From an uncultured Acidobacteriota bacterium (GTDB taxonomy: Bacteria > Acidobacteriota > Thermoanaerobaculia > UBA5066 > DATFVB01): a DNA stretch of 64,000 nucleotides. Under the pieces are notes generated by a model. That model worked only from the letters and a program-made list of their open reading frames with translations, was not told the DNA's origin and did not search any database. Location of the stretch: assembly GCA_963813155.1 (NCBI GenBank), contig CAWEYG010000003.1, forward strand, positions 256,001 to 320,000, in the 5' to 3' direction. Below are positions 38,805-61,740 of the stretch, piece after piece. Position 1 is the stretch's first letter, and each line of letters opens with the position of its first letter. The position numbers and the translations under genes were made by a program.

Positions 38805-39040
38805 CCAACCCCACCCCGACGCTGGACGCGCCACCCCTCCCCGCATTGCAAGGAGGGGAAAACACCGCAATGTCATTCCCGCGAAAGCGGGAATCGCCCG
38901 GCGCGGGCTCGACCTCACCCGGCCTCACGGCCACCCTCTCCATGTGGAGAGGGTAAATCGAGCATTCCCTTTAGTCGCGCCGAAGCCTTCCGACTTCGCC
39001 AAAGCGCTTCGTCGCGACGGCGAGTGGCGAAGGCGGATGT
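38805..39040. repeat. Cluster of REP-like GC-rich hairpins
   Basis: ATTCCC-GCGAAAGC-GGGAAT (38875-94), ACCCTCTCCATGTGGAGAGGGT, CCCTCCCCGCATTGCAAGGAGGGG and GCCTTC...GAAGGC. Confidence 0.55.
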
Positions 39041-39127
39041 CCCCTTTTTCCGTTTCCGCGATGAGCAGGGCGAGGGAGAACCTCGAAATGCAGGAAGGCG
39101 CAAGAAAGGCGTATACTCTACGAGCCA

Positions 39128-40120
39128 TGCCAGCGGCACCGATTCCTCCCCCGGCGCCCGGCCCGCGCCTGCTCGATCGCGTACGGGTTTGCGTACGTGC
39201 CCGCCACTATTCGATCCGCACCGAAGAGGCCTATGTTGGGTGGATCCGCCGATTCATCCTCTTCCACGGCAAGCGGCACCCGAGCGAGATGGGAGAGCCG
39301 GAAATCAACGCGTTTCTCTCGCACCTGGCGACGGCCAACAAGGTTTCGGCCTCGACCCAGACTCAGGCGCTCTCGGCGCTGTTGTTTCTGTACCGGGTGG
39401 TTCTCCTCAAACCCTTTCCCTCGATCGCCGACCTTATCCGCGCGAAGAAACCGAAACGTCTGCCAACCGTTCTCACCCGGGAGGAAGTCAGAGCCGTGCT
39501 TTCGCAGCTCGACGGTGTCCCGAAACTCGTGGCTGCCGTTCTCTATGGTTCGGGGCTTCGGCTTCTCGAAACCTTACGCCTTCGAGTGAAAGACATCGAT
39601 ACCGAAAGAAACCAGATCACCGTCCGTGACGGGAAGGGCCAGAAAGACCGTCTCACGATGCTGTCGGTTTCGGCCCGAGCAGGGCTCATCGAACATCTCG
39701 AGGGCGTTCGCCGCTTGCACCGCGAGGACCTCGGCCGGGGGGTTCGGAGCGGTTTTTCTCCCAGACGCTCTGGCTCGGAAATATCCCGGCTCCCCGAAGG
39801 AATGGGCCTGGCAATGGGTCTTTCCCGCGGATTCTCGTTCCGTTGATCCTCGGTCACAGGCGGTTGCCCGCCACCACGTTCATGAGCGCCTGATTCAGAG
39901 AGCCGTGAAGCAGGCCGTCCGAAAAGCAAAGATCTCGAAACCGGCAGCCTGCCATACTCTCAGACATTCATTCGCGACACACCTTCTGGAGGATGGCTAC
40001 GACATCCGGACCATCCAGGAGTTGCTTGGCCATAAGGACGTTTCAACCACGATGATCTACACCCATGTGCTCAACCGGAGCGGCGGACTGGGGGTGAGAA
40101 GTCCAATGGACAAGCTATGA
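39128..40120 (+). CDS. intI: Integron integrase (frameshift in the G-run near 39740)
   Basis: [40 protein letters not shown], integron-specific insertion [36 protein letters not shown] and [14 protein letters not shown]. Confidence 0.95.
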
Positions 40121-40281
40121 GCCCGTGTCGTTTTGACCGGTCGGGTTTTCGATCTTCGGCGACAAATCTCGTCGTGTTGATCGGTTCGTCAGGTGGCGAG
40201 GAAGTCGAGGGTCTAAAATGGGTTGGATGATAAAAGTGCCAGAAATGCAAATCGACTTAGGCGACAGATTTCGACGCGTTT

Positions 40282-40316
40282 GCCGAATCCTTTGGGACGC
40301 CGAATACATGTTCGCC
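40282..40316 (+). other. attI: attI site (crossover G40310|T40311)
   Basis: GCCGAAT-ACAT-GTTCGCC simple site with an upstream GCCGAAT direct repeat. GTTCGCCCACCC is complementary to the cassette 1 end GGGTGGGGCGAAC. Confidence 0.8.
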
Positions 40317-40326
40317 CACCCGAGCA

Positions 40327-40695
40327 ATGTTTAGGTCCATCGTCTTCCTCGGTCTGGTGGGGTTTATTGTCACGCCTGACGCCAGGGCTCTCCCTTCCGA
40401 CAAGATCACGGTTCCCGAACTGCTCGACCGGGTAGAGCCGCAGACGGTTCCACTGCCGAGTCCCCTCATTATTCGAAACCCGGAACTCAGGCTTCAGATA
40501 ACCGTCGACCCGACCGGCAAGGTCGACGACATCAAGGTGTTACGTTCCGTTCAACCTCGAGTTGATCGGGCCTGGGTGGCAGCGGTGAAACAGTGGCGGT
40601 ATAAGCCCGCGATGCGTAATGGGACGGCCATTCAGTACAAAATTAAACTCGTGACATGGGTCCACGCGGAACGATGGCCACGCGAAGCGAAGTAG
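40327..40695 (+). CDS. Cassette 1: secreted TonB C-terminal domain protein
   Basis: Signal peptide; ITVDPTGKVDDIKVLRS..DRAWVAAVKQWRYKPAMRNG. Confidence 0.75.
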   Translation: MFRSIVFLGLVGFIVTPDARALPSDKITVPELLDRVEPQTVPLPSPLIIRNPELRLQITVDPTGKVDDIKVLRSVQPRVDRAWVAAVKQWRYKPAMRNGTAIQYKIKLVTWVHAERWPREAK

Positions 40696-40705
40696 TGCGG
40701 GGTGG

Positions 40706-40766
40706 GGCGAACATCGGCGTGCAGCGGATGTCGCTTCGCTCCACCGCTGACGCCGGGTCGTTATGC
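40706..40766 (+). repeat. attC 1
   Basis: GGCGAAC...GGCGTGCAGCGG/CCGCTGACGCC...GTTATGC, extrahelical G. Confidence 0.9.
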
Positions 40767-40789
40767 CACCTAATCGGCGACGGGGGCAA

Positions 40790-41097
40790 ATGACGACGCG
40801 GGAGGATAACTTGCTTTCCGGCCGAGGGCGGTGGGCTCTTGGAGCGATCGCGATCTCCCTCGGGCAGGCTGCTTGGCTCTACAACACGGTCAAAACTGCA
40901 AACATTCTCAACGCGGCGCAGATACGGCCCATCTTGCTTCTTGGTCTAGTGGGCTGGTCTGTCGGCCTTGCCATGGGACTCGCGGGAATCCGAGTCGGCT
41001 CTCCGTCGCAAAACTCGTCTCAGCGCTCGGAATCATTGCAAACTTGGCCGGTGTCGCAGTCACGCTGTGGAAAATGGCGACCTGGTGGGTGGCCTAA
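40790..41097 (+). CDS. Cassette 2: small membrane protein (one frameshift)
   Basis: Three hydrophobic segments over two frames; TAA lies inside the attC inverse core. Confidence 0.6.
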
Positions 41098-41152
41098 CAT
41101 GCGCGTGCAGCGGATGTCGCTTCGCTCCACCGCTGACGCCGGGTCGTTAGGC
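41092..41152 (+). repeat. attC 2
   Basis: GCCTAAC...GTTAGGC, same internal palindrome. Confidence 0.9.
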
Positions 41153-41165
41153 CGCCGAGACTGAT

Positions 41166-41569
41166 ATGCCTTTGAGACCAAGGGATCTGGAGGCGCAGGG
41201 AATCCCGATCACGTTCGAACAGCCAGGCGAGGTGACCGTTCGCGTCGGCCCCTGCTCAGGGCAGAGATTAGAGCGCAAGAAGATCCCTTGGACGGCCGTC
41301 GCTACATCTGTGCTGGCACGATCTTCTTGAAGAACGGGTCGAAGCTTCAGGCAAACTTCGAAATCGAGACGCACAGCTTTGATTTCCTCGACCGCGAGAG
41401 CGTTCAGTGCCTCATCGGCGACGCTTGGTACGGAATCGACGAACCCGAGCTGTGGGCGGTACTCGGCATTTCCCAGAAGGATGGCTTGCCAGATTGCTGG
41501 TTGCCGGATGTCCCACTCGATTACCACGTCCCCGGCCCTTACCCGATGAACTGGAAGGGCAAGAAATGA
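41166..41569 (+). CDS. Cassette 3: hypothetical protein (one frameshift)
   Basis: MPLRPRDLEAQGIP... joins ORF 41288-41569. Confidence 0.55.
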
Positions 41570-41576
41570 CCCAGCG

Positions 41577-41637
41577 GCCTAACCCGCGCGTGCAGCGGAT
41601 GTCGCTACGCTCCACCGCTGACGCCGAACCGTTCGGC
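41577..41637 (+). repeat. attC 3
   Basis: GCCTAAC...GTTCGGC. Confidence 0.9.
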
Positions 41638-41654
41638 AACGTTAAGGAGCGTCG

Positions 41655-42030
41655 GTGGCTCAAGAAAAGCTGATCGTGCCCGATGATCGGCCACTGACGA
41701 GCGGTGAGCGTGAGTTGATCACGTGGCTGCTCGATCATGGGTCGGCGGAAGCGGCGGCATATCGCGGCCAGCTGTCGCGGGTTCATGTCGTTTCGAGGTG
41801 TGGGTGCGGCTGTCCGACCGTCGATCTCGCACTTGCCGGAAGCATCAAGCGGTCTGGATCGTCGGCGATCCTGGCCGACTTCACCGGCCGTTCACCAGAA
41901 GGCGTCCTAGTCGGCGTCATGCTTACTGGTCGCGAGGGCGAACTCTCGGAGCTTGAGGTTTATTCAAAGGATGGGGCAGGTCGCCACCTTCGGGGGGCTG
42001 CCCGTGCCGGTGGATCTGGAGTCGGCGTGA
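41655..42030 (+). CDS. Cassette 4: hypothetical protein with CGCGCP motif (DUF6984-like; 3' frameshift)
   Basis: AAGGAG RBS; RPLTSGERELI..RCGCGCPTVDL..GELSELEVY; probable stop TGA 42028-30. Confidence 0.6.
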
Positions 42031-42034
42031 CGTT

Positions 42035-42098
42035 GCCGAACATCGGCTTGCAGCGGACTGCGCCCTGCGGGCTTGCCGCTGAAGCCGGGTCGTTCGGT
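42035..42098 (+). repeat. attC 4
   Basis: GCCGAAC...GGCTTGCAGCGG/CCGCTGAAGCC...GTTCGGT (second attC type). Confidence 0.9.
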
Positions 42099-42103
42099 CG
42101 TCG

Positions 42104-42402
42104 ATGAGTCGCGATGACGGTCAGAAGTTCATCGATCGTTATGACGAGAAGCAGAGTCACAACCTCGACCCCGGATATTTCACGGGCGGTCGCCTGGAGC
42201 CGGTCTTCTTGGCGAGGAGGCCGAATAAATGGGGCTGGACGCTGCTCGTGGGCGGGTTCACGGCACTCGGGCGATCGTGTTGAATCGTGCAGATACGACC
42301 TGGTGGGAAAGTGGTCGTCGGCTCGTCGGCGTCGCTAGTCTCATGATCGTTGCGGGCGTCAAAGCGCGCCGGTGGCCGAATCGACGCGGAGGAAAACCGT
42401 GA
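42104..42402 (+). CDS. Cassette 5: small membrane protein (frameshifted; absent from the ORF track)
   Basis: MSRDDGQKFIDRYDEKQSHNLDPGYFTGG..WGWTLLVGG, then ..LVGVASLMIVAGVK..KP*. Confidence 0.5.
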
Positions 42403-42415
42403 GAAGGTCGAGACG

Positions 42416-42476
42416 ACCGAACATCGGCGTGCAGCGGATGTCGCTGCGCGCCACCGCTGACGCCGGGTCGTTAGGG
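42416..42476 (+). repeat. attC 5
   Basis: ACCGAAC...GTTAGGG. Confidence 0.9.
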
Positions 42477-42487
42477 AGACGGTAACC

Positions 42488-42902
42488 GTGAGAAGTTTCG
42501 TGAAGCCGCTTACCACCATTGTTCGTCGCCGTTGTCCTCACTTCCCTTTTCTGGAATTTGGCTTTCCGCCACGTTCCCGGGTCCATGGTGCTGTTTAACA
42601 TCGGCAGACTGGCCATCGCGGCGTGGGCAGGCTGGCGCGTTGTGTCACTCGGCTCGGGAAGTCTTTCCCAAGCCGCCCTATCCGGTGCGATCGTCTTCTT
42701 GATCGACCATGTGTTCTTGAAGGGTGGGTATTTTCTGGGCGAGGCCGTGCTTACTACCGGCGTCGACCGGCATAAGTACCTCCTCGCGTTCGGCGGCGTC
42801 TGCGTGTCCTATCTCATGTTTGTCGCAATCCCGGTCGGCCTCGCGGTTTGCGGAGGCTTAGCGGCCCGGTCGCGCAAGAGGGCAGAAGATGCGCCTGCCT
42901 AA
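42488..42902 (+). CDS. Cassette 6: four-TM membrane protein (likely 5' frameshift)
   Basis: ORF 42519-42902, hydrophobic; GTG 42488 has an AGGGAG RBS; TAA in the inverse core. Confidence 0.6.
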
Positions 42903-42957
42903 CATGCGCGTGCAGCGGACTTCGCTACGCTCGCCGCTGACGCGCAAGGCGTTGGGC
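42897..42957 (+). repeat. attC 6
   Basis: GCCTAAC..GCGCGTGCAGCGG/CCGCTGACGCGC..GTTGGGC. Confidence 0.9.
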
Positions 42958-42986
42958 AGCCAAAGTAAGGGTGGCGTGGAAAACAT

Positions 42987-43343
42987 ATGAAGTTGAGCAC
43001 TTCTAGGCACGTTCTTGTCGGCTCGGCTAGCCTTGTAGCACTCAGCACTGCAGTTCTGCCGTCGGTCACAGGATATGGGACCACGCTTTTCCAAATCGTT
43101 GTGCTTGGCGCCTGGTCGATTGTTGCACACCTATCCTCTGGAGCCTTCGCTGACCAACATCAGGGCCCGGTGTGGTTCGTCACGCTCATCCTTAATGTGG
43201 TGCTCTTTCTGGTCCCAGCATTGGCGGTCTATGTACCGGGACGAAAGCGTTTGCCGATGTTGACAGTGGTCGTTCTACTCTCTTGGCTGAGCTTCTACCT
43301 CGCATCGCTGTTCTTTCTCTCCCCGGCAACGGATGGACCATGA
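42987..43343 (+). CDS. Cassette 7: small membrane protein
   Basis: 118 aa, 3-4 hydrophobic segments. Confidence 0.65.
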   Translation: MKLSTSRHVLVGSASLVALSTAVLPSVTGYGTTLFQIVVLGAWSIVAHLSSGAFADQHQGPVWFVTLILNVVLFLVPALAVYVPGRKRLPMLTVVVLLSWLSFYLASLFFLSPATDGP

Positions 43344-43362
43344 TGGCAAGCGCGGCCGGGCT

Positions 43363-43426
43363 GCCCAACATCGGCTTGCAGCGGACTTCGGCCTGCGGCC
43401 TTGCCGCTGAAGCCGGGTCGTTGGGC
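43363..43426 (+). repeat. attC 7
   Basis: GCCCAAC...GTTGGGC. Confidence 0.9.
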
Positions 43427-43440
43427 GACGAGAAGCGGCG

Positions 43441-43756
43441 ATGACGGCACCTTCCATCTCGCGAGCTGTTGCCAAAGATGCTATCTGGGCTCGCCTCGGG
43501 CAGCTCCGAGTCGAGGTCTTATGACGATCTGCGGGACCTTGCTGATTCTAAGGAGAACCTCCGAGTCGACGGCGTTGACGCGACACTGTGCGTTTTCCGC
43601 GAGGCCCAGAAGGACGGCTCGATTTGGGTTATCGGGCAGCTCGCCACGCCATCACGACCTTTCCTCGTCGTATTCAGCAGCCGACAACTGTTCGCAGAAG
43701 GTCTTGAAGCGCGCTCTGACGGCTCTGTTCGCGTGCTAAGCGTAGAGGGAACTTGA
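43441..43756 (+). CDS. Cassette 8: hypothetical protein (frameshifted)
   Basis: MTAPSISRAVAKDAIWARL.. joins ORF 43469-43756. Confidence 0.5.
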
Positions 43757-43776
43757 TTACTTCACCGCAAGGCGTC

Positions 43777-43840
43777 GCCCAACATCGGCTTGCAGCGGAC
43801 TTCGGCCTGCGGCCTCGCCGCTGAAGCCGGGTCGTTCGCG
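43777..43840 (+). repeat. attC 8
   Basis: GCCCAAC...GTTCGCG. Confidence 0.9.
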
Positions 43841-43846
43841 CCCCGG

Positions 43847-44209
43847 ATGCAGGTCCTGCGCTCGATGGCGACGCCGGGTCTGGTCTTTCTACTTGTGGCT
43901 TCGCTGGCTTGCGTCAGTGATCAGCCATGCAGCACGCAATCGCCGAAGCCCATGAAGGCCGACTTTGAGGTGCCCCAGAACTTCTGGGATAAACATTCCG
44001 AGGGGAGCGTCACGCTTCGGGTCATCGTTGGGACCGATGGACGCATCACTTCGCCGGAGATTCTCCAGAGCAGCGGTCCAGACTATTCTGCGATCGCCCA
44101 GGAAAGCGTCTTGCGGTGGCAGTATCACCCAGTGATCTGCCGCGGTGCTCCCATTTCCTTCTATCTCACGGTGACGGTCAACTTCACAAAGAGTGGCAAG
44201 AGTGGATAG
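43847..44209 (+). CDS. Cassette 9: TonB C-terminal domain lipoprotein
   Basis: Lipobox-like SLAC; EGSVTLRVIVGTDGRITSPEILQSS..AQESVLRWQYHP..G.PI..TVTVNF. Confidence 0.8.
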   Translation: MQVLRSMATPGLVFLLVASLACVSDQPCSTQSPKPMKADFEVPQNFWDKHSEGSVTLRVIVGTDGRITSPEILQSSGPDYSAIAQESVLRWQYHPVICRGAPISFYLTVTVNFTKSGKSG

Positions 44210-44221
44210 CCGAGAGCGGGT

Positions 44222-44282
44222 CGCGAACACCGGCGTGCAGCGGATGTCGCTGCGCTCCACCGCTGACGCCGAATCGTTCGAC
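44222..44282 (+). repeat. attC 9
   Basis: CGCGAAC...GTTCGAC. Confidence 0.9.
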
Positions 44283-44300
44283 GGTCGAAGGGAGCCTAGG

Positions 44301-44717
44301 TTGGTGAACGCTGTTCTCGCCTTGGCAGCGGCGGCGATGTTCGGCACCTCGATTCTGCTCGCGCAGGGCGCGACGGGAGTGGGCGAGCCTCAGCCAGTCG
44401 AGATTCGTATTCCGGAATACCCGCTCTGGGCACGGAAGGCCCGTGTCCAAGTGACAATCGTCGTACGCGCCTCGATCGGTCCCGACGGCACCGTTAACCG
44501 TGCCCTCACGGTCAAAGACCCCTTTGCTAACCACAAACTCGACGATCTCCTGGAGGAATCGCTGAGTCGGTGGCGATTTCCCGCAGCTTCCGGACAAGCG
44601 GTTCGGGCTTCAGACATTACGTTTCATTTCGTCTTAGGCGACGAGACTCTCGTTAAGTACCTTCCACCAAACGAAGTCTTCATCGAGGCGACGATACCGC
44701 CCTTGGTGACTCGCTAG
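44301..44717 (+). CDS. Cassette 10: secreted TonB C-terminal domain protein
   Basis: Signal peptide; PEYPLWARKARVQ..IGPDGTV..SLSRWRF..ITFHF. Confidence 0.8.
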   Translation: MVNAVLALAAAAMFGTSILLAQGATGVGEPQPVEIRIPEYPLWARKARVQVTIVVRASIGPDGTVNRALTVKDPFANHKLDDLLEESLSRWRFPAASGQAVRASDITFHFVLGDETLVKYLPPNEVFIEATIPPLVTR

Positions 44718-44727
44718 CTATGCGACC

Positions 44728-44788
44728 GTCGAACATCGGCGTGCAGCGGATGTCGCTACGCGCCACCGCTGACGCCGGGTCGTTATGC
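44728..44788 (+). repeat. attC 10
   Basis: GTCGAAC...GTTATGC. Confidence 0.9.
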
Positions 44789-44802
44789 GACTCGAGACCG
44801 TC

Positions 44803-45231
44803 GTGAAGGGTCAACAATCGTTGCGCAATACGCTCGTGGTCGTGGGGGCATACTTCCTGGGGGCGCAGGTCGCCGTCCTGCTCTTCTGGCCGATGTCGCT
44901 ACTCATACCAACCTATTCTTCAGGGGAGGCAACCGCGGAGGCGAGGAAGATGGCGGTTATCGACGCCTTCTACCGTGTACCGATATTCATGGGAGCGGTT
45001 CTCGCAGGCGTCGGCGTCGGTGTGTGTCTTCAAAGTGCTCGGCCTCGGGTGTGGATCGTCGTAACCGGCGTGGTCGTCGCCCTCTGTACCCTATCCTCGG
45101 CTGCGTGGAGTCTTTTCCCTCTTGCCCAGGCGGTTCACCACTTCGAGCGCGCCGTGGCTGCTGGCTTGCTCTCATCGCTCGCATGCCTAATGACCCTCCG
45201 AAAGCGAAAGGCCGTGAATGCGACCGCATAA
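44803..45231 (+). CDS. Cassette 11: four-TM membrane protein
   Basis: ORF 44785-45231 with in-frame GTG at 44803; TAA in the inverse core. Confidence 0.65.
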   Translation: MKGQQSLRNTLVVVGAYFLGAQVAVLLFWPMSLLIPTYSSGEATAEARKMAVIDAFYRVPIFMGAVLAGVGVGVCLQSARPRVWIVVTGVVVALCTLSSAAWSLFPLAQAVHHFERAVAAGLLSSLACLMTLRKRKAVNATA

Positions 45232-45286
45232 CATGCGCGTGCAGCGGATGTCGCTACGCGCCACCGCTGACGCCGAATCGTTACGG
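45226..45286 (+). repeat. attC 11
   Basis: GCATAAC...GTTACGG. Confidence 0.9.
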
Positions 45287-45679
45287 CTTACCGTAACGAT
45301 TCTGCTCCGCGTCTGCGCTCTGGTGGTTGGGTTCCTAGCGGTTGTCTTTTTGCTGATGCCAGTTTACTTTCTGCGCTATGGGGCGGCGCCGATAGGAGAT
45401 GCAATCGCATCAGTAGGCGTTATCCTCTTGTCCCTCCTCTGTATGCGCTGTTTTCGATGGCTGTGGCGGCGCACTCGTTTTTGGACTGATTCACGATCAT
45501 TTAGTGAGGTCGCAGCACTAGCGGCAGCGATCGCTCTTTGGCCAGTCGCGATATATTTTGAGCGCAGAACGGTCGGAGTAGCAATAGATATCGTGCACAT
45601 GGTCGACGTTTCTGCTTATCGTCGGTGCTTACACCCTAGCTCGTCGTTGCTGGCACCAGAAGGCCAATCACAGTGCTGA
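45281..45679 (+). CDS. Cassette 12: membrane protein lacking an obvious own start codon
   Basis: Hydrophobic ORF open from the crossover TTA onward. Confidence 0.55.
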   Translation, partial: LRLTVTILLRVCALVVGFLAVVFLLMPVYFLRYGAAPIGDAIASVGVILLSLLCMRCFRWLWRRTRFWTDSRSFSEVAALAAAIALWPVAIYFERRTVGVAIDIVHMVDVSAYRRCLHPSSSLLAPEGQSQC

Positions 45680-45680
45680 G

Positions 45681-45756
45681 CCCTAACAACTGCGCCCAGC
45701 GGACTTCGGCCCGCGGCTTCGCCGCGGCCCTCGCCGCTGACGCTCATCCGTTAGGT
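45681..45756 (+). repeat. attC 12 (long type)
   Basis: CCCTAAC..CAGCGG..GGCCCGCGGCTTCGCCGCGGCCC..CCGCTG..GTTAGGT. Confidence 0.85.
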
Positions 45757-45766
45757 GCCAAGAAGT

Positions 45767-46114
45767 ATGGCATTCGCTGAGATCGAACTTGCTAAGTACC
45801 GGCGCACTCTCGACGCCTGGATCGAGAAGAATCGACCGCCCCCAGAAGTCCGGCCGAAGCTCGATTTCGGGTACCGCATCGCCGGGCAGAGTGTCGAACT
45901 CTTTGAAATTCGCTCGACCTTCGGCCGCCCCGGTGAGAAGCGCGAGAACCCCTTTGCCAAAGCGACGTGGAACAGGAGCCGTGGCGTCTGGCAAGTTTAT
46001 TGGCAGCGGGCGGATCTCAAATGGCATTCTTATCAACCGGTGAAGGCCGTAGGAACGCTGGATAAGTTTCTCCAGACGGTTCGCGAGGACAAATATGCAT
46101 GCTTTTTTGGCTAG
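45767..46114 (+). CDS. Cassette 13: DUF3024 domain protein
   Basis: RPPPEVRPKLDFGYRI..SVELFEIR..AKATW..WQVYWQRADLKWHSY..DKYACFFG. Confidence 0.85.
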   Translation: MAFAEIELAKYRRTLDAWIEKNRPPPEVRPKLDFGYRIAGQSVELFEIRSTFGRPGEKRENPFAKATWNRSRGVWQVYWQRADLKWHSYQPVKAVGTLDKFLQTVREDKYACFFG

Positions 46115-46126
46115 GCCCGGCGCGGC

Positions 46127-46187
46127 CCCTAACATCGGCGTCCAGCGGATGTCGCTGCGCGCCACCGCTGACGCCGGGTCGTTGGGG
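46127..46187 (+). repeat. attC 13
   Basis: CCCTAAC...GTTGGGG. Confidence 0.9.
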
Positions 46188-46195
46188 AGCCGAAG

Positions 46196-46762
46196 ATGAC
46201 GAATCGGTCGATCGCCGGTCTCGTTTTCAAGGTCTGGGGAATCATTTGGATCGTGTCGGCGGCATCATCGGTCGGCAGCGTAACGGCGCTCCTCATGGCC
46301 TCCTCGCCGCCCGGACCTGAGAATGTGATGATGCACTGGACCAAGATGTCTTACGTTTTCGGTACAGTGTCACTGCTGGCCGCCGGAATCGCTTTGTCGT
46401 GCTTTGCCAGTCGAATATCCCGCAGTCTTTTTCCGACGGAAGAGCCTGTCCACCTTGATTTCAGCGCGGCAGCGCTTCAAGCCGCTTTATTCGCCGTTCT
46501 CGGAATCCATTTTGCGATCCGTGCTCTTCCTGGGGTCGTCTCCATCGTTTACGTGCTTCGCACGAAGCCATCTTGGGACGCGCAGTCAGCCGCGTCGTAC
46601 GCGTGGGACCGCAAGCGCGAAGCGGTTCTCAGCTCCACCGTGGAGCTAATCGCGGGCGTAACGCTATTCTTCTCCAGCAACGCCCTGAGTAGCCTCTGGC
46701 GTCGGTTGCGCCCGCTCTCGGAAACCCCTCAGCCGGCCGATCCTCCCAAAGAGGCCGAATGA
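46196..46762 (+). CDS. Cassette 14: four-TM membrane protein
   Basis: 188 aa, hydrophobic, ends ..LSSLWRRLR... Confidence 0.7.
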   Translation: MTNRSIAGLVFKVWGIIWIVSAASSVGSVTALLMASSPPGPENVMMHWTKMSYVFGTVSLLAAGIALSCFASRISRSLFPTEEPVHLDFSAAALQAALFAVLGIHFAIRALPGVVSIVYVLRTKPSWDAQSAASYAWDRKREAVLSSTVELIAGVTLFFSSNALSSLWRRLRPLSETPQPADPPKEAE

Positions 46763-46772
46763 GATCGCGGCT

Positions 46773-46833
46773 CCCCAACACTGGCGTGCAGCGGATGGCA
46801 CTTCGCTCCATTGCTGACGCCGGGTCGTTAGGC
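46773..46833 (+). repeat. attC 14
   Basis: CCCCAAC...GTTAGGC. Confidence 0.9.
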
Positions 46834-46838
46834 GGCCG

Positions 46839-47243
46839 GTGAAACGCGGAGGTGGAAAGCTGGTGGGCCTGCTTCTCCTGCCCGCCATTGTCCTGATCGC
46901 CGATTTTGTTGTTCGACAGGTTTTTCATCCATACGGCGCCGCCCGAATTACGTTGAACGTTGTCCACGCAGCGGTTGTTGTCTGGGCAGGATTTCGAATG
47001 ACGAGATCCGGATTCAATATGTCGCAAGCCGCATGGGTCGGTGTAGGTCTTCTATTTTTTGATCTGGTCGTCGTCGCAGGGCCATTCTTCGCAATTAGGG
47101 GCCTGGCAGTTCCAGGTGGTTGGAGGTCAGCGCTAGGCGGCGGCGTGGTTGCTTCGGTGTTCGGTGCTCCCTTGGCAGCAGCACTGGCCGCCCTAGGTGG
47201 GCTCGCCGGGCGAAAATGGAGGCCTACCAGTGCGGCCGTCTAA
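46839..47243 (+). CDS. Cassette 15: four-TM membrane protein related to cassette 6
   Basis: WAGFRM..SQAAWVG..FD..GGLAGRK; TAA in the inverse core. Confidence 0.65.
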   Translation: MKRGGGKLVGLLLLPAIVLIADFVVRQVFHPYGAARITLNVVHAAVVVWAGFRMTRSGFNMSQAAWVGVGLLFFDLVVVAGPFFAIRGLAVPGGWRSALGGGVVASVFGAPLAAALAALGGLAGRKWRPTSAAV

Positions 47244-47301
47244 CATTGGCTTGCAGCGGACTTCGGCCTGCGGCCTTGCCGCTGAAGCCGGGTCGTTCGG
47301 C
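47238..47301 (+). repeat. attC 15
   Basis: GTCTAAC...GTTCGGC. Confidence 0.9.
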
Positions 47302-47317
47302 AACCCAATCTCCGTGA

Positions 47318-47624
47318 TCAGCTGCGGCGTCGCCAGTAGCCCGGGCGCCGCCTCGTGTGCGCGACGGCCCAGACGATCAGGTCGTCGCCTCGTCGCTCGA
47401 AATGGAGAACGTACGGGAAGCGGCTCAGCGGCACCTTGCGGAACGTCGTGGTCCTCGACCTTGGTCGGTGTTCCTGGGAGCATTCCGGAGGCAGCCTTAT
47501 CGACGTAGTCGTCGACCTCCGCCTGAAAATCCACACCGAGCCCCGGTCGGGCATTTTCGTAGCGTGTCGCGGCCGCGAGGTACTCGTCGCGAGCAGCCTC
47601 GTGAAATCGAACTCGCGCGCTCAA
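47318..47624 (-). CDS. Cassette 16: RelE/ParE family toxin (one frameshift)
   Basis: FHEAARDEY..YENARPGLGVDF....SRFPYVLHF..IVWAVAHTRRRPGYW. Confidence 0.85.
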
Positions 47625-47857
47625 CCGCGCTTCAGGGCTTTCGAAACTTCGGCCTTGACCGTCTTTCCATCGATCAGGAGCGCCTTATCGGCGTCGGACT
47701 CCCGCACCCGGCTCTCGACTTCGGCGTCCCAGGCAGCCTCAACGCCGGCGTCGGGCTCGCCGTCAAGGCTGGCGATCAGCTCAGAAGCCAGTTTCGCGCG
47801 GTCTTCCCTGGGCAACTTCAAGGCTGTGTCGAGCAGGGTTCCCGCGGATGGGCTCAT
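47621..47857 (-). CDS. Cassette 16: addiction module antitoxin
   Basis: ALKLPREDRAKLASELIASLD..VEAAWDAEVESR; stop overlaps the toxin start. Confidence 0.85.
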   Translation of the reverse strand: MSPSAGTLLDTALKLPREDRAKLASELIASLDGEPDAGVEAAWDAEVESRVRESDADKALLIDGKTVKAEVSKALKRG

Positions 47858-47886
47858 GACCCTCATTCTAACCCGGCGGGCGAGGT

Positions 47887-47962
47887 GCCGAACATCGGCT
47901 TGCAGCGGTCATTCGCTTTCGCCTTGCTTCGGTCGGCTGCCGCTGAAGCCGGATCGTTCGGG
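47887..47962 (+). repeat. attC 16 (long type, last in array)
   Basis: GCCGAAC..GGCTTGCAGCGG..CCGCTGAAGCC..GTTCGGG. Confidence 0.85.
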
Positions 47963-48030
47963 CGGTCGGAAACACGCTGATGGTTAAGCGGCGCAACGCA
48001 GCGATCAGCATCGAGCGACCCGGTCGCTGA

Positions 48031-48288
48031 ATGCAGTTCCTTCGCGAGTTGCGGGATCGAATCCGATCGGGCGAGATCACCTGCACCGTTCGCCTGTGGC
48101 AGCGCTCGCATGTGAAGGTCGGGGGGCGGTACTCGCTACCCCCTGGACACGTCGTCGTGACCGGCACTACCGAGATGTCACTGGACGACATCACGCCGTC
48201 TCTTGCGCGGCGATCCGGATTCGTCGGAGTGGTCGATCTCCTCAAGACGGCGAAGCACGGGCCTGGACCGCCGGGTTTTTCTGATTGA
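48031..48288 (+). CDS. ASCH/PUA-like hypothetical protein (3' end uncertain)
   Basis: IRSGEITCTVRLW..VKVGGRY..ITPSLARRSGF. Confidence 0.55.
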   Translation: MQFLRELRDRIRSGEITCTVRLWQRSHVKVGGRYSLPPGHVVVTGTTEMSLDDITPSLARRSGFVGVVDLLKTAKHGPGPPGFSD

Positions 48289-48339
48289 ATTCCTCTATGA
48301 GGCGGCCGGCAAACGGCGGGCGAGCTGGCGGCCTGCCCG

Positions 48340-48736
48340 ATGAGCGCTCGCGGTGTTCGCGTTTCCGACGCCCGGAAGATGCTCCTGAAGCTTGACGGCG
48401 TCGTCGAAGGCACGTCGTACCGGATGCCTTCGTTCCTCGTGAACGGCCGGTTCTTCGCGCGATTCCGCGACGACGATACGGTCCTGGTCCTGCAGCTCAA
48501 GGCGATCGCCGACCGGGACGTTCTGATGGAGATCGATCCGCAGGCGTTCTTTTTCACCGACGCACTACCGGAACTACCCCGCCGTTCTCGTCCGGCTCGC
48601 CGAAGTCCGGCGGTCGCTCTTGGAAGATGTCGTCAAGGAAGCGTGGCGGCACGTGTCGACCCTTCCTCCGGCCCGGCCGCGGCCGAAACCCGCGCGACCC
48701 CGTCCTCGGAAACCGCGAAAGCCGAAGCTGAACTAG
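48340..48736 (+). CDS. MmcQ/YjbR family protein (one frameshift)
   Basis: EGTSYRMPSFLVNGRFFAR..DPQAFFFTDHYRNYPAVLVRL..EAWR. Confidence 0.75.
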
Positions 48737-48745
48737 CCGTCGGCG

Positions 48746-50643
48746 CTCATCTGCGCCCGACTTTCGCGGGATCCGGGATGGGCGCGGGCGCGAGGCAGCC
48801 GCCTCTCCTCGTCGCGCAGCCGCCCGTGGCGCGGCCTCCCAGTTCGCCGCGAGCGCCGCCGCATCGAGCGAGCCGAGCCCCGTCGTCTGGTCGTAGCCCG
48901 CGCCGGAGGAATAGCCGGTGACTCCCGGCACGCTGTTGTCGCCCTCGACGACGTCGTGGAAGACCGCCGCGCCTCCGCGCGCGAACTGGTTCGCGCCGAG
49001 CCGGTAGAGGTTCGGGTTGATGTTGCCCTGCCGCTCGCCTGTCTTCTGGACGATCAGCGCCATGATCCCCGCCATCGAAGGCGTCGAGACGGACGTTCCC
49101 TCCGCTCCGGAGAGGCCGGACGAAGAGGCGGACGCGCCCTGGACGATGAGGTACGGAACGCTCCCGGCCGCCGCGAACGAGATGTCCGGCACCTGTCGCC
49201 GGCCGCCGGCGGCGATGCCGGGAACCCCCTGTTGCCAGGACGGCTGCGGAACAGCGTGCTGGTGCCGCCGCCGGTCGACCAGAGGCCCGAACCGCCGGGC
49301 GTCTTTCCGCTCTCGTTCCACGCGGCTTCGGGAATGTAGGACAGCGCGGAGCCGAGCCGCGCGTCGCTGGAGTCGGCCCAGTACCGGCCCGGGTCGCCGT
49401 GGTCGTCGAACTGGGTGCCGCCGACGCAGACGTCGTTCGGGGTCGTGCACAGCCCCGAGACCGCCCTTCCCGAGCCCTCCGAATCGTCGGCGGTGCTGCA
49501 GGCCGACGCGCCGCTGTCCATGGACGCGACGAACACGGTCATTCCCTGGGCCGCGGCCTGGGCCCAAAGGTTCTTGTACAGCGCGCTCGCCGCGGTGCCC
49601 ATCTCGGCCTCGCAGTTTCCGAAGCTGACCGACACGATCGGCGCCAGGTTCTGGTCCACGATGTACTGCGCGGACAGGTCGATACCGTCGGTCGCGGCCG
49701 TCGACCCGGAGACGACGAGTTTCACGGCCGCGTTCGGGGCGATCGCCCCGGACCACTCCACGTCCAGGTCCGCTTCGAACTCTTCGTACCCGCCGAGATT
49801 GCCCGGCGAAGGCCCGTTGCGCACGAGGACGGGATCGTTCGCGGGAAGGCCGAACAGTTTTCGAAAAGCCGAGACGTCCGCGACGGAGATTTCCGTCCGA
49901 CCCGCGATCGCGATCGTCACGCCGGCCGCCGTCACGCCCGCCGCGTGCAGCGGCGCGACGCCGTAGATCGTCGCGAAGTCCTCGGGAGCGAGAGCGCGGT
50001 CGGCAGAACCGCCGCCGTAAGCGAGGCTTCGGGCAGCGGAGGTTCGATGGCTCATCGGCCGCCGCGAGGCGCTTCCGAGCGAGGCAAGGCCGGCGACCAA
50101 TCCGGAGATTTCGCGGGGCATCGTCAGGGAATCCACTCGAACGGGGCGCTCGCCCTCCGCATTCGAGAACGTGTGGATCCTCGTTCCGAAAGCCGACTCC
50201 ACGCGCGAGACGGGCCCCGAGACGTTGATCCACCCGCGTCCCTGGCCGATCTCGTCGATCGTCAGCCCCTTCTGCTCCAGCCAGGCTGCGACTCGCGACT
50301 TCGTCGTCGGTGATCCCGAAGCGGCGGCCGAATTCCGCCGGCGCGAGCCAGCGGTGATACTCGGCGGAGGCGGGGTGCTGCTGGGCCTCCAGGAAACTTT
50401 CCAGTCTCGCATTCGCCTCGGGCGAACGGGTCAGAACGAGGATCATGCGGTCGAGCGGGGCGTCCAGGGCCGCCGGCCCGAGGTCGACGGCATCGACCGG
50501 GACGGCGATCCTCTCCGCGAGACGAACGGAATCCGCCTTCGAAGACGGCGACGCCGCCGCGGAAGAGTCGCGGGCGACGCGCCCGCGGCGCAGGCCGCGA
50601 CGACGCCCAGAACGATTTTCAGCCGAGTCGGCACAGATCTCAT
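48746..50643 (-). CDS. S53 (sedolisin/kumamolisin) peptidase with prodomain (frameshifted; 3' end approximate)
   Basis: Signal peptide, QQHPASAEYHRWL, EADLDVEW, DSG, GTSVSTP and GYDQTTGLGS motifs. Confidence 0.85.
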
Positions 50644-50848
50644 CGGATTCCCCCTTTGCACCTCCCGTGAAAGAGCAGGATCGGGGCCCTCGAGAACGGG
50701 ACGTCCGAACGAAGGCCAACTCCCGGCGAAAGCGGCAGATCGCCGTTCGGGAGAAACCGAGAGGTCGGCTCGCTTCCCGCAGCGGGAGCGGAATTCTGGA
50801 AAGGAGACCCGAGCCTCGCTCGAATAGAATCGAACGCGGGAGGAAACG

Positions 50849-51292
50849 ATGCCCAACACGATCCGTCTTCACCGGGTGCTCCGGACCACGCCCGAGAGGG
50901 TCTATCGGGCGTTCCTGGACCCCGACGCGATGGCGAAATGGCTTCCGCCGAACGGATTCACCGGCAAGGTCCACCAGATCGACGCGAAGGTCGGCGGGAC
51001 CTACAAGATGTCGTTCACGAACTTCACGAGCGGCCAGAGCCACTCCTTCGGCGGAAAGTACGTCGAGCTGGTGCCGAATGAGCGCATCCGCTACACGGAC
51101 CAGTTCGACGACCCGAACCTGAAGGGCGAGATGCAGGCGACGATCACGCTGAAGAAGGTGTCGGTCGGGACCGAGCTCCAGATCGTGCAGGAAGGCGTCC
51201 CGGACCTCATCCCCGCCGAGGCCTGCTACCTCGGCTGGCAGGAATCCCTGACGCTGCTGGCGAAGCTCGTCGAGGCCGAGATCCCGGGCTAA
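50849..51292 (+). CDS. SRPBCC/AHSA1-like domain protein
   Basis: PERVYRAFLDPDAMAKW..VGGTYKMSF..GWQESL. Confidence 0.85.
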   Translation: MPNTIRLHRVLRTTPERVYRAFLDPDAMAKWLPPNGFTGKVHQIDAKVGGTYKMSFTNFTSGQSHSFGGKYVELVPNERIRYTDQFDDPNLKGEMQATITLKKVSVGTELQIVQEGVPDLIPAEACYLGWQESLTLLAKLVEAEIPG

Positions 51293-51309
51293 AGGGAACC
51301 CGGCCGTTC

Positions 51310-55440
<4,131 letters not shown>

Positions 55441-55448
<8 letters not shown>

Positions 55449-57228
55449 GCGCGGCCGAGCGCCTGCCCTTCGAAGCGACCCGGGACGGGGCCCCCTTCTT
55501 TCGGGCCGGGGGCTTTCCCTCCCCCGCCCCGTCGTAGAACGACGACAGCGCCGACACGATCCCCCGGGCAACGGATTCCCGGTACTTGCGCGTCTGGATG
55601 AGCGCGAGGTCTTCCTCGTTGTTGAGGTTGCAGACTTCCACGAGCGCTCTCGCGGGAACTTCGTTGTAGCGAATCACCGCCGGCACCCACTGGCGGCCGG
55701 AGCGGATGACGCTTTCGCGAATCGGCTGAAACGCGTGGACGGGAAGGTTGTCGTGGCGGAACGCGCCGACGATCTTCTCCGCGAGCCCCCGCGATACTCC
55801 CTCGGCCTCGAGTCTTTCGCGGCGGGAGAACGAAACCCGCGGAGCCTGCCGGTATTCCCGCCGGGCCTCGTAAATCGATCCCGACTTTCCGAAAGAGTCC
55901 TTCAGGAACTTTTCGCCGGGGATGTAGACCATCGCGCCGCGCACCGAGGGGTGGAGAGAGTCCGCGTGGAACGAGAGGAACACGACGTGAGCGGCGTCCC
56001 CGCCGCGCGAAATGACGGACCGGAGGAGCGAGTTCGAGAGGTACCAGCGCAGGTGCACGCCGGGGACGGTGTCGTCGATGGGGTACGGCGGGCTCGTCAT
56101 GACGCGGCCGCCGGAGGAAGCCGAGAGCCGGTCCCTATCCGTCGCGCCGGAAACCGACGGATCCTCGACCGTGACGACGACGCGCGCCCGTGTGTTCTTC
56201 CGCAGGAGCGCCGCCGTGCGCATCGTGATGTCGTAGACGTAGCGCGATTCCGCGACGCCCGACACGAGCGCGCCGGTGTCGCGGCCCCCGTGCCCCGGAT
56301 CGAGGATCACGGTGACGCCCTCGAGGTCCGCGGCCTTGAGGCGATTCACGAACTGCGCCGCCTCGAGCTTCGAGTGCTCGTACGCGATCCGCTTCGGGTC
56401 GTCCGAGGAACGGTAATCCGGCAGGAGATCGTCGACCGGAATCCGGATCTCGTATCCGACCGGTATCGCGTGCACGTTCGCGACGCCGCTTCGCTCGGCG
56501 ATCTTCTGCGCCTCGGCGTTGACCTCTTCGGCGTACACGAGCCCGGTGAACCGGACGACGACCGCCGAATAGAGGGCTTCCCCCTTCTGGAGGCGGTACG
56601 ACGCGTACGGTCCCTTCGCGTCTTTCCCGAACGAAAGAGGAGGCGGCCCCGTCACTTCCTTCGCGACCGCCTCCGCTCGAAAAACGGGCAGCAGGAGGTC
56701 GATCGGGATCTTCAGCTTCTGGCCCTTTTCGGTTTCCAGCGAGGTCACGGCGTTGGCCTTCTTGATCTTTTCGTAGTTCGCGCCGTCCCCGGTGAACCAC
56801 TCCGCGATCCGCCAGAGGCTCTCCGGCTCGCCGGAGAGGCCCGCGACCGTGTGCGTCCAGCCCTCCGACGACGCGCTGTCGCCCGAGAAGAGCGCCTGCA
56901 TGGCGATCTTCTTGTAGTTGCCGGACAGCAGCTCGTAGGGAACGCGGAGAAAGATCGCCTGGTGGAGGACGTCGCTCTCCTTGTTGAGCGACAGGATTCG
57001 CGCCTTCGTCGCCGGATCTTCCGTGAAGCGGCGAACGAAGGCGTTGATGCCTTCTCCCGGCAGCGGTTTGGCGAAGAGGTAGACGAGGTCTCCGCGCGCC
57101 ATGCCGACCTTCAGCTCGTCCGAAATGACGACCGTCTTGGAAAACTCGGGCTCTTCCGCCGCGCCGCCCGCGACCGCGAGCGCGCAGAAGGCCAGAACGA
57201 GGCTAGGCCGCGATCGGAGGAACCGCAT
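55441..57228 (-). CDS. N-acetylmuramoyl-L-alanine amidase (Amidase_3) with LysM-like domains
   Basis: ESLWRIAEWFTG, YRLQKGEALYS, ILDPGHGGRD, FLSFHAD and LVEVCNL motifs. Confidence 0.85.
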
Positions 57229-58651
57229 CCGTGAAACGCGTCTCCCGTTCGTAAGCCGCCGCCGCGGCGAACACCGAATCGTCGCGGCCGCGGTCGGCGA
57301 CGATCTGAAGTCCGAGGGGCAGGCCCGAGGCCGCCGGGCCCGACGGCACCGAGATCGCGGGAAGTCCCGCGAGGGAGGCCGGCGTCGTGAAGATGTCGGA
57401 GAGGTACATGGAAACCGGATCGTCCGCTTTTTCGCCGAACCGGAATGCCGGGCCGGGAACCGTCGGCGTCACGATCACGTCCACCTGGGAAAAGGCCTCT
57501 CGGAAATCCGCGCGCAGCAGGGCGCGAGCGCGCTCCGCCCGGCGGTAGTACTCGTCGGCATATCCCGCGGAGAGAACGAAGGTCCCCAGGAGAATCCTGC
57601 GCTTGACCTCTTCGCCGAATCCGAGCGTCCGCTGTTCCGTGTAGAACTCCTCCACGGTCGGCATCTCCACGCGGGGTCCGTATCGGATCCCGTCGTAGCG
57701 GGCGAGGTTGGAGGACGCTTCGGCATTCGCGACGACGTAGTAGATCGGAATCGCGTACGGCGCGCGCGGGACGGACACTTCCCGAACCGTCGCGCCGAGG
57801 CTCCGCAGGACGTCGACCGCGCGGGAGAAGTTCTTCTCGACCTCGGGGTCGAGCTCGCCGTTCACCGCCTCCTTCAGCACCCCGATCTTCATTCCGCGGA
57901 TCCCCTGCCGGACCGCGCCGACGGGATCGCCGACGGGCTCTCGCAGCGACGTGGAATCGCGCGGGTCGGGCCCGGCCATCGCGGCGTAGATCCTCGCGGC
58001 GTCTTCGACCGAGGTCGCGATCGGCCCGATCTGGTCCAGCGAGGACGCGAACGCGATGAGCCCGTATCTCGATACCCTGCCGTAAGTGGGCTTGTAGCCC
58101 ACGACTCCGCACAGGGCCGCGGGCTGGCGCACCGAGCCGCCCGTGTCCGACCCGAGCGCCACCGGGACCTCCCGGGCCGCGACGGCGGCCGCGCTGCCCC
58201 CGGACGACCCGCCCGGCACCCGCTCGGGATCCCAGGGGTTGCGGGTGAGTTGGAACGCGGAGTTCTCCGTCGAGGAGCCCATCGCGAATTCATCGAGGTT
58301 CGTCTTGCCCGCGATCACCGCACCGGCGGCCTTGAGCCGCTCCACGGCCGTCGCGTCGTAGCCCGGCGAGAAACCGCGGAGAATCTTCGACGCGCAGGTG
58401 GCCGTGTAGCCCGAGACCGCCATGTTGTCCTTCACCGCGACGAGCACCCCGGCGAGCGGAAGATTCTCCCGGGCGCTCGCCCGGCGATCCACCTCCCGGG
58501 CGTCCGCGAGGACGCGGTCCTCCTCGAACGAGAGGAACGCCCGAATGCCCGGTTCTCGTTCCGCCATGCGCGCGAGCGCCTCTCGCGCGAATTCCTCCGC
58601 GGAGTGCCGGCGCGAGGTCACCGCGGCGGCAATCTCGACGATCGAGCTCAC
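57203..58651 (-). CDS. gatA: Glu-tRNA(Gln) amidotransferase subunit A
   Basis: GKTNLDEFAMGSSTENS, GGSSGGSA, GSDTGGSVRQPA and GFGEEVKRRILLG motifs. Confidence 0.95.
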   Translation of the reverse strand: MSSIVEIAAAVTSRRHSAEEFAREALARMAEREPGIRAFLSFEEDRVLADAREVDRRASARENLPLAGVLVAVKDNMAVSGYTATCASKILRGFSPGYDATAVERLKAAGAVIAGKTNLDEFAMGSSTENSAFQLTRNPWDPERVPGGSSGGSAAAVAAREVPVALGSDTGGSVRQPAALCGVVGYKPTYGRVSRYGLIAFASSLDQIGPIATSVEDAARIYAAMAGPDPRDSTSLREPVGDPVGAVRQGIRGMKIGVLKEAVNGELDPEVEKNFSRAVDVLRSLGATVREVSVPRAPYAIPIYYVVANAEASSNLARYDGIRYGPRVEMPTVEEFYTEQRTLGFGEEVKRRILLGTFVLSAGYADEYYRRAERARALLRADFREAFSQVDVIVTPTVPGPAFRFGEKADDPVSMYLSDIFTTPASLAGLPAISVPSGPAASGLPLGLQIVADRGRDDSVFAAAAAYERETRFTDAVPPIAA

Positions 58652-58958: not shown

Positions 58959-58999
58959 GGCGCTCATTGTAACCTCTTCGCCGCGGAGGAAGACAATTC

Positions 59000-60197: not shown

Positions 60198-60219
60198 TCT
60201 GCCCGGAAGGGAGGGGTGC

Positions 60220-61659: not shown

Positions 61660-61740
61660 GCGCTCGACGCCCGGTTACCCGCAAGGACAACCAGACCCGC
61701 AGCCTTTCCGGCCGCTATGGAAACGAGCGCCGTGAGTCCG

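Follow-up and report, generated by a model that had tools for sequence, protein, structure and literature searches.

A reading frame across the attI crossover of a chromosomal integron and its counterpart in the cassette pool

The integron and its attI junction

The window analysed here is a stretch of 64,000 nucleotides (nt) from an uncultured Acidobacteriota bacterium of the class Thermoanaerobaculia (assembly GCA_963813155.1, contig CAWEYG010000003.1, positions 256,001 to 320,000 of the forward strand). It holds a chromosomal integron whose cassettes lie downstream of the integrase gene intI, both being on the + strand. Our subject is the attI site that joins this platform to the first cassette. 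An ATG ends exactly on its crossover base, and the reading frame set by that base runs from attI into cassette 1 and is open in every attC site of the array. An earlier note on this DNA had proposed that the ATG acts as a universal translation starter for whichever cassette is inserted first, matched in frame to the leaders of the cassettes.

The cassette array (40311..47956, + strand) comprises 16 cassettes. A search with R1, a covariance model built from nine of the window's own attC copies, located attC sites between 40705 and 47963, 16 in all and every one on the + strand (E 1.4e-25 to 9.4e-08). Each of the 16 is open in frame 0, which we define as the frame with the crossover G as third codon base, and the spacing from AAC to GTT is 2 mod 3; the attI ATG and the open frames that bridge the attC sites are therefore in the same frame, as the earlier note had it. 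Scanning with R1 from 47957 to 64000, past the sixteenth attC (crossover G at 47956), yielded no further attC site, and the only matches beyond the array were weak ones (E > 0.5) at 48965, 51760 and 63512. Cassette 1 (40311..40760, + strand) is delimited by the attI G (40310) and the G of the R' box of its own attC (40760). This attC occupies 40705..40767 (+ strand; 88.3 bits with R1), and the cassette gene (40327..40695, + strand) encodes a secreted TonB_C-domain protein of 122 amino acids (aa; PF03544, E 1.8e-11; TIGR01352, E 2.6e-11) whose N-terminus resembles a signal peptide. The ATG at 40327 is the first ATG, GTG or TTG of this open reading frame (ORF).

The junction between attI and cassette 1 reads ...TTTGGGACGCCGAATACATG|TTCGCCCACCCGAGCAATGTTTAGG. 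Its attI core (40282..40310, + strand) consists of two copies of GCCGAAT (40282-40288 and 40299-40305), a TTTGGGAC box and TACATG up to the crossover G, and it aligns with ...TTRGGnnGTCTAAtacATG|TTAGGC, the consensus of related attI sites. By the established rule, integrons are cut between the G and the TT of such a site. After the ATG comes TTCGCCC, which matches without error the reverse complement of R'' in the first attC (GGGCGAA-C) and thus places the cassette boundary directly after the G of ATG 40308-40310 (+ strand). The same complementarity is exact for cassettes 3 and 4 and has one mismatch for cassette 2. Sequence and R'' complement agree, then, that the G of this ATG is the crossover base; we infer recombination by IntI at attI solely from this boundary rule.

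Translated from the crossover ATG into cassette 1, frame 0 gives the peptide MFAHPSNV*. Its TAG (40332..40334, + strand) is supplied by the cassette, 21 nt into it, and overlaps the gene start (ATGTTTAG), just as the earlier note described: the stop begins 5 nt past the A of the gene's ATG (40327-40329), a spacing that makes the two frames a candidate translationally coupled pair if a common mRNA is assumed. A GGGA lies at 40294-40297, separated from the ATG by a 10-nt spacer. The frame also extends far beyond the crossover ATG in the other direction. It is open upstream to 40137, includes further in-frame ATGs at 40218, 40227 and 40245, and has no stop between ATG 40218 and ATG 40308. The resulting leader ORF of 38 codons (40218..40334, + strand; peptide MGWMIKVPEMQIDLGDRFRRVCRILWDAEYM|FAHPSNV*) runs through attI and over the crossover, has the crossover ATG as its codon 31 and ends on the stop provided by cassette 1. 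In the window alone, an AT ahead of a fixed G is expected about once in 16 cases by chance; the case for more than chance is made by the relatives.

Upstream of attI, intI is split by a one-base frameshift. The N-terminal part (39127..39741, + strand; 205 aa; TIGR02249, E 1.2e-70, 238.4 bits, profile positions 1-188) and the C-terminal part (39743..40120, + strand; 125 aa plus stop; TIGR02249, E 1.3e-61, 208.8 bits, profile positions 193-315) abut in different frames at a run of six G (39737..39742, + strand). Jointly the halves span profile positions 1-315, each scoring below the 265-bit cut-off for the whole protein, and apart from the frameshift both are intact matches to the integron integrase model. 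The frameshift may be an assembly error or may mark a true pseudogene.

Crossover triplet, attC frame and cassette starts in related integrons

Of 401 genomes sampled from the class, 191 have a relative of IntI. For 80 relatives we used the sequence that follows intI, with 29 shorter loci in addition, and attC sites were called with R1 and a second model, R2; at the 35 attC-positive loci, out of 60, every attC lies downstream of intI and on its strand. To place attI, we took the reverse complement of R'' from the first attC and sought its best match behind a CTAA-type box. Loci with no clear attI (L118, L123, L129, L150, L157, L169, L171, L178, L182, L183 and L190) were left out of the triplet counts. 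The two closest Thermoanaerobaculia families, the window's own and its sister, are called f1 and f2; 20 of their arrays, sampled by best IntI score, were analysed.

Among 58 published attI sites, the triplet that ends at the crossover is ATG in 21, TAG in 12, GCG in 7, GAG in 6, CTG in 5, and GGG and AAG in 2 each, with CGG, TGG and TCG occurring once each. ATG|TT is found at all 4 sites of f1 and at 17 of the 21 sites of f2 (21/25 together), the remaining 4 sites of f2 being CTG, and at none of the 33 sites of other families. The 3-4 bases that precede the conserved ATG vary (tac, atg, gttg, gta, gcat, taac, tcac, atc). The alignment of related attI sites that the earlier note had suggested as a check turns out largely in its favour, conservation of ATG|TT being a property of f1 and f2, within which the CTG lineage departs from it; of two unpublished genomes, G004 has ATG and G104, from the same genus as the window, has AAG.

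Other crossover triplets were recorded alongside. At 12 attI sites in families f3, f5, f8 and f16 (L145, L151, L161, L162, L167, L168, L177, L179, L181, L189, L154 and L136) the site reads TAG|TT, with a stop codon in the position and frame of the ATG. The AAC-to-GTT spacing of attC in these arrays is mostly 1 mod 3 (for example 11/11 and 15/15 in two arrays), a spacing at which the R'' TAA and the crossover share a frame. Outside the phylum, 4 of 8 same-strand integrons (L011, L007, L037 and L039; Actinomycetota, Coriobacteriia, Omnitrophota) have ...AATCATTG|TT or ...AAGTATTG|TT at the inferred attI, so that TTG, a rare start codon, ends on the crossover base. Applied to 80 IntI loci from other phyla, R1 gave only 22 matches, too few for frame statistics.

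The stronger evidence comes from the cassette pool and does not depend on the triplet: the frame that passes the crossover is not confined to attI. In the arrays behind ATG-type attI sites, 162 of 167 attC sites have no frame-0 stop over the 60 nt or more that precede the crossover, and the alternative frames are open over this length in 34 and 84 of them. Spacing between AAC (in R'') and GTT (in R') equals 2 mod 3 in 156/165, across length classes of 50, 53, 56, 59, 65, 68 and 86. CTG arrays behave alike (frame 0 open in 40/42 attC sites, spacing 2 mod 3 in 41/43), while frame 0 is open in only 13 of 50 attC sites of TAG-type arrays and in 5 of 37 in the remaining arrays. These counts show that the attC sites of ATG-type arrays are under coding-like constraint. 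Over 162 complete cassettes, the dominant ORF stops before R'' in 89, on the TAA in R'' in 45, inside attC in 4 and past the crossover in 23, with no dominant + strand ORF in 1; 21 of the 23 read-throughs cross in frame 0. A start codon lies within 60 nt in attC in 99 of the 167 sites if ATG, GTG and TTG are allowed and in 43 if only ATG is. At the crossover triplet itself, the attC sites of ATG-type arrays carry CCG, TCG or ACG.

We compared cassette starts in a set of 295 from 35 arrays, in which 16 arrays behind ATG-type attI sites were set against those behind other types; five attC hits lacking the expected GTT were excluded, as was the duplicate L114. (L113, from G256, and L114, from G124, are listed as different species and have an identical attC pattern, scores and attI context over 8.8 kb.) In 55 of the 183 cassettes of ATG-type arrays, the first frame-0 stop (within 120 nt) overlaps an ATG or GTG that opens an ORF of 50 codons or more; the first frame-2 stop does so in 13 of the 183. 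The two frames are nearly equal in the other arrays (10/101 and 9/101). After removal of leaders at least 80% alike (279 left), ATGA and GTGA starts were counted by the phase of their TGA relative to the crossover. The counts were 70:23:17 in ATG-type arrays (p 1e-10; 49:10:6 for first starts only) and 12:25:16 in the others (10:10:11). Array by array, phase 0 strictly leads in 12 of the 16 ATG-type cases, ties in 1 and falls behind in 3; it leads in 1 of the 14 others. The longest + strand ORF falls in the frame required for overlap in 61 of 126 cassettes of ATG-type arrays, versus 33 and 32 for the alternatives (p 0.0016), and its frame distribution is uniform in the other arrays. The four CTG arrays of f2 have the same phase bias (14:5:6). 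A frame match between attI and the cassette leaders thus holds for the f1/f2 pool, which is built around frame 0, and not for the arrays of other families. Two further measures were of no use here: the base before the first TGA is enriched for A alike in frame 0 (53/156) and frame 2 (45/132) and does not discriminate, and a loose count of NTGA overlaps, which accepted T as start base and any internal TGA, was discarded as too permissive.

In the window itself, an ATGA or GTGA start (ORFs of 59-188 aa) sits on the first frame-0 stop in 6 of the 16 cassettes (2, 5, 7, 11, 14 and 15). In cassette 8 a start also lies on that stop, with an ORF of 27 aa only. Frame 0 is open into the gene in cassettes 9, 10 and 12, and in cassettes 1, 3, 4 and 13 a plausible start lies at most 11 nt from the frame-0 stop. 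The proposal that the leader either stops on the start of the first gene or fuses to it accordingly describes much of the array, but cassettes 6 and 16 have no stop-start overlap, no open fusion and no nearby start. The frame-0 'fusion' protein of cassette 12 found no homologue among 297 candidates and is an orphan.

Several other features of the cassettes may be mentioned. Small secreted proteins with a TonB_C domain (PF03544) are encoded by 3 of the 16 cassettes (cassette 1, 40327-40695; cassette 9, 43847-44209; cassette 10, 44277-44717), with E values of 1.8e-11, 6.2e-11 and 9e-07, respectively, and the product of cassette 13 is a DUF3024 protein (E 1.2e-34). Cassettes 2 (40790-41164 and 40831-41097) and 3 (41166-41330 and 41288-41569) each contain overlapping ORFs in different frames. 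The halves resemble one protein, one of them beginning and the other ending with a helix-like stretch, and the pairs may be additional assembly frameshifts. The second ORF of cassette 2 stops on the TAA of the attC R'' box.

Initiation at attI and the readings of the crossover ATG

Candidate starts were scored by the duplex energy between the 20 nt upstream and the 3' tail of the genome's own 16S rRNA, which ends in the usual CCTCCT. These Shine-Dalgarno (SD) energies serve as relative measures only: random 20-mers of the genome average -4.18 kcal/mol, with 23% at or below -6 and 10% at or below -8, and crude genome-wide start calls (the first ATG or GTG of 4886 long ORFs, 1500 sampled) are barely above this background, with 28% at or below -6. 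ATG 40218 is preceded at 6 nt by a GAGGG SD-like box (40207..40211, + strand) and scores -10.3 kcal/mol, whereas the cassette 1 gene start at 40327 scores -2.2 and is in effect without an SD. In this window ATG 40218 would be a likelier initiator than the crossover ATG. Because it is in frame, SD-led and reads through to the same TAG, ATG 40308 is not needed as an initiator here.

Related sites reach the same frame in more than one way. We surveyed the layout of 21 ATG-type sites (20 published ones and that of the unpublished G004). Nine have the form TAA-NNN-ATG, with an in-frame TAA two codons before the crossover ATG, which blocks upstream entry and leaves the crossover ATG as the sole possible leader start. 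Eight of these nine have no start that feeds the TAA, and L113 has a TTG only. Six of the nine have an SD-like energy at or below -6 (23% among random 20-mers) from a TTGGGCGG or TTAGGACG box that also resembles an integrase-binding repeat. A further 10 of the 21 sites, among them the window and both integrons of one f1 genome, have an upstream in-frame ATG with an energy of -7.3 or below, at positions -33, -39, -72, -87 and -90; in L091 the upstream in-frame ATG scores -6.6 at distance -87. Three of the four CTG sites read ATG-CAG/CAA-CTG|TT, with an in-frame ATG two codons before the cut. Taken over f1 and f2, an ATG-started ORF crosses the crossover in frame 0 at 25 of 25 sites (21 of them by group definition), in frame 1 at 6 and in frame 2 at none. 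The corresponding counts for frames 0, 1 and 2 in the other families are 1, 16 and 8 of 33.

Two groups of f2 sites deserve separate description. In L126, L127 and L131 (genomes G208, G192 and G320), the stop of intI lies 13 nt before the crossover ATG, within the attI boxes, so that the gap from intI to attI is too short to hold a promoter for the cassettes. These loci also have a small ORF with an SD (-11.5 kcal/mol) that begins inside the end of intI and crosses attI. In L101, L115 and L091, from genus g8, attI leader ORFs of 30 codons keep their frame and length, have a set of residues in common (M.....S.MISRS..IRR.....GK.N/KYM) and partly overlap the end of intI in another frame.

The geometry of the junction, the conservation of its ATG in f1 and f2 and the frame statistics are matters of observation; from the sequences we infer that the attI and attC frames are translated and that coupling is of value. 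Our preferred reading, to which we assign a probability of about one half, is that a frame-0 leader carried by attI across the crossover feeds the first cassette by termination-reinitiation coupling. Frame 0 would run from the integron platform into whichever cassette is inserted first. Ribosomes would start mainly at ATG 40218, with ATG 40308 as a second and weaker entry, would terminate on the TAG supplied by the cassette at 40332-40334, and would begin anew at the ATG of the TonB_C gene (40327), which overlaps this stop and has no SD. For later cassettes, frame 0 would arrive by way of attC, either from gene read-through (14% of the 162 complete cassettes) or from a start internal to attC, so that each cassette would meet an identical incoming frame behind attI or behind an attC. 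A wider version, which we advance more tentatively and hold at somewhat under even odds, is a ribosome relay in which the crossover base sets one reading frame for the cassette pool shared by the two Thermoanaerobaculia families. Under such a relay, an ATG on the cut or shortly ahead of it would open the frame at attI; every attC, being stop-free and a multiple of three in length, would pass it on; and cassette genes would dock their start on the stop of the frame or continue in frame. A captured gene could then be expressed wherever it is inserted, with no need of initiation signals of its own.

A number of observations weigh against translation through the crossover. The SD energy of the crossover ATG, -3.9 kcal/mol, is no better than the random mean, and the crossover ATGs of ATG-type sites, including G004, average -4.22. 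Coupled starts need not rely on coupling, since many have an SD of their own (48% at or below -6, against 23% for background). A sigma-70 consensus scan of 38900-40800 returned no promoter site. The TAAAAT at 40215-20 that had been put forward as a -10 element has no -35 partner hexamer in that scan and overlaps ATG 40218. RNA folding of 40200-40380 (z -0.39) is not unusually structured, and the unmasking of a hairpin by the leader is for that reason not indicated for cassette 1. Gene starts behind the overlap and phase counts were taken from ORFs in high-GC DNA, with no gene caller, and are approximate; a loose phase count for the window by itself is 6:5:1. Because the ATG arrays all belong to two sister families, shared descent confounds the association of attI type with cassette phasing. 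The CTG lineage is nested in the ATG clade in a tree built on the 125 C-terminal residues of IntI, and the poorly resolved backbone of this tree is compatible with one or two origins of the ATG. The nested CTG sites and the AAG of G104 indicate that the ATG is dispensable. Finally, other IntI lineages keep a triplet of their own before the TT, such as TAG (12 sites in 4 families) and GCG (7 sites), and the conserved triplet may accordingly be a feature of the recombination site and not proof of use as a start.

This last point is the core of the strongest competing explanation, in which the ATG co-evolves with IntI as part of the recombination site and is unused in translation, the phasing of cassettes arising from attC ORFs and gene read-through alone. 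The lineage-specific triplets (ATG 21, TAG 12, GCG 7, GAG 6) speak for it, as do the background SD energy of the crossover ATG, the palindromic arrangement of AACATGTT around the cut in some sites, and the loss of the ATG in the CTG lineage and in G104, both of which retain the attC type. We nonetheless consider it unlikely, if by no means negligible, because it leaves unexplained the frame-0 ATG ORF at all 25 f1/f2 sites (21 of these, as noted, by definition), the in-frame ATG 6 nt upstream in 3 of 4 CTG sites and the SD-led in-frame starts at five different distances. Moreover, the CCG, TCG and ACG found at attC imply that the integrase has some latitude at these positions, at any rate when attC is folded.

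The initial proposal itself, in which the crossover ATG and its GGGA form the initiator in the window and a universal starter for any first cassette, appears improbable to us. The geometry in the window is as described, the crossover ATG is the sole start in nine related sites (one of them G004), and the ATG is preceded by an AT-rich CGAATAC (CTAATAC in relatives) in a GC-rich genome; an AT-rich upstream region favours SD-independent initiation. Against this, the GGGA put forward as a ribosome-binding site pairs no better than random sequence; a far better in-frame initiation site lies 90 nt upstream; and ribosomes coming from ATG 40218 would read ATG 40308 as an internal methionine. 'Universal' is in any case too strong a word for an ATG that is absent outside f1 and f2. 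Less probable still, in our view, is a decaying integron in which the ATG, the leader ORF and the stop-start overlap of cassette 1 arose by chance and serve no function. The 1-in-16 expectation for AT before G, the frameshifted intI and the weak phase count within the window would fit this reading, but the statistics over 16 ATG-type and 4 CTG-type arrays are far from chance, and the frameshift in intI sits in a run of six G. On balance we retain the coupled frame-0 leader as the reading to be preferred.

Relation to known integron leaders

Integrons are the textbook case of the capture of promoterless genes, and work on the translation of cassettes has been confined almost entirely to class 1 resistance integrons, where the reference is ORF-11. 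If the frame-0 leader operates as proposed, environmental chromosomal integrons would have found a different and more thorough solution to cassette translation. A reading-frame constraint would act on recombination sites, with the cut point doubling as a codon boundary, and the start codon at attI would be one face of a pool-wide frame constraint on these sites. Arrays of this kind could be recognised in metagenomes by a signature of 3-periodic attC spacing together with a stop-free frame, and the starts of cassette genes could be annotated from the crossover frame. Neither a start codon at the crossover nor a frame constraint on attC sites was reported in any paper returned by our full-text literature search; subscription journals, including those with the original ORF-11 and attC papers, were outside its scope.

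Passages of PMC8876359 describe the nearest counterparts. ORF-11 of attI1 begins at an ATG with an SD, extends over the crossover and terminates on a stop, usually TAG, that the first cassette supplies at positions 3-5 of its core site; it supports cassettes lacking a translation initiation region by coupling (Hanau-Bercot et al. 2002, cited via PMC8876359), an idea that, together with ORF-17, is repeated in passages of PMC11511950. Short ORFs in attC are described as relieving the attC hairpin by termination-reinitiation (Jacquier et al. 2009, via PMC8876359). ORF-17 and ORF-18 of attI1 are covered as well; ORF-18, which runs on into the cassette leader where the core site provides no stop, is a special case at the blaOXA-1 cassette family, with its stop 45 bp before the gene, and still supports translation of the cassette (PMC8876359). 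Passages of PMC3607928 on the atypical integrons of Treponema report that intI is transcribed towards attI and contain nothing on translation signals in attI.

Measured against these descriptions, the Thermoanaerobaculia arrays share single elements with each system and combine them differently. As in the Treponema integrons of PMC3607928, intI and cassettes are on one strand. Translation through attC would aid the next cassette in the manner of the short attC ORFs, for which the frame-0 bridge is an obvious parallel. Those ORFs, however, were described for single resistance-cassette sites, whereas the property is pool-wide here, with 162/167 attC sites stop-free and 156/165 3-periodic. With ORF-18 the window shares a leader that starts in attI and enters the leader of the cassette, an arrangement that is exceptional there and the rule here, with the stop often on the gene start.

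The closest comparison is with ORF-11. The window leader likewise lies in the attI region, has an SD and an ATG (40218), crosses the cut and takes its stop from the first cassette. Its stop, however, is not the TAG at positions 3-5 of the GTTRRRY core, which here reads GTTCGCC. The frame is one base off that of ORF-11 and passes through the core, ending where the cassette leader sets the stop, often on the gene start. A start codon exactly on the cut, on a chromosomal platform with intI on the strand of the cassettes, also separates these sites from the class 1 mobile integrons in which ORF-11 is found, as does a frame 0 held in common with the attC pool of the window. In other Thermoanaerobaculia families, ATG-started ORFs that cross attI are mostly in the ORF-11 frame (16/33, versus 1/33 in frame 0), and 5 of the 7 gene read-throughs recorded in other-family arrays end in that frame. 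By analogy, the window leader would work like ORF-11, as a separate element with a frame, a stop and a start position of its own.

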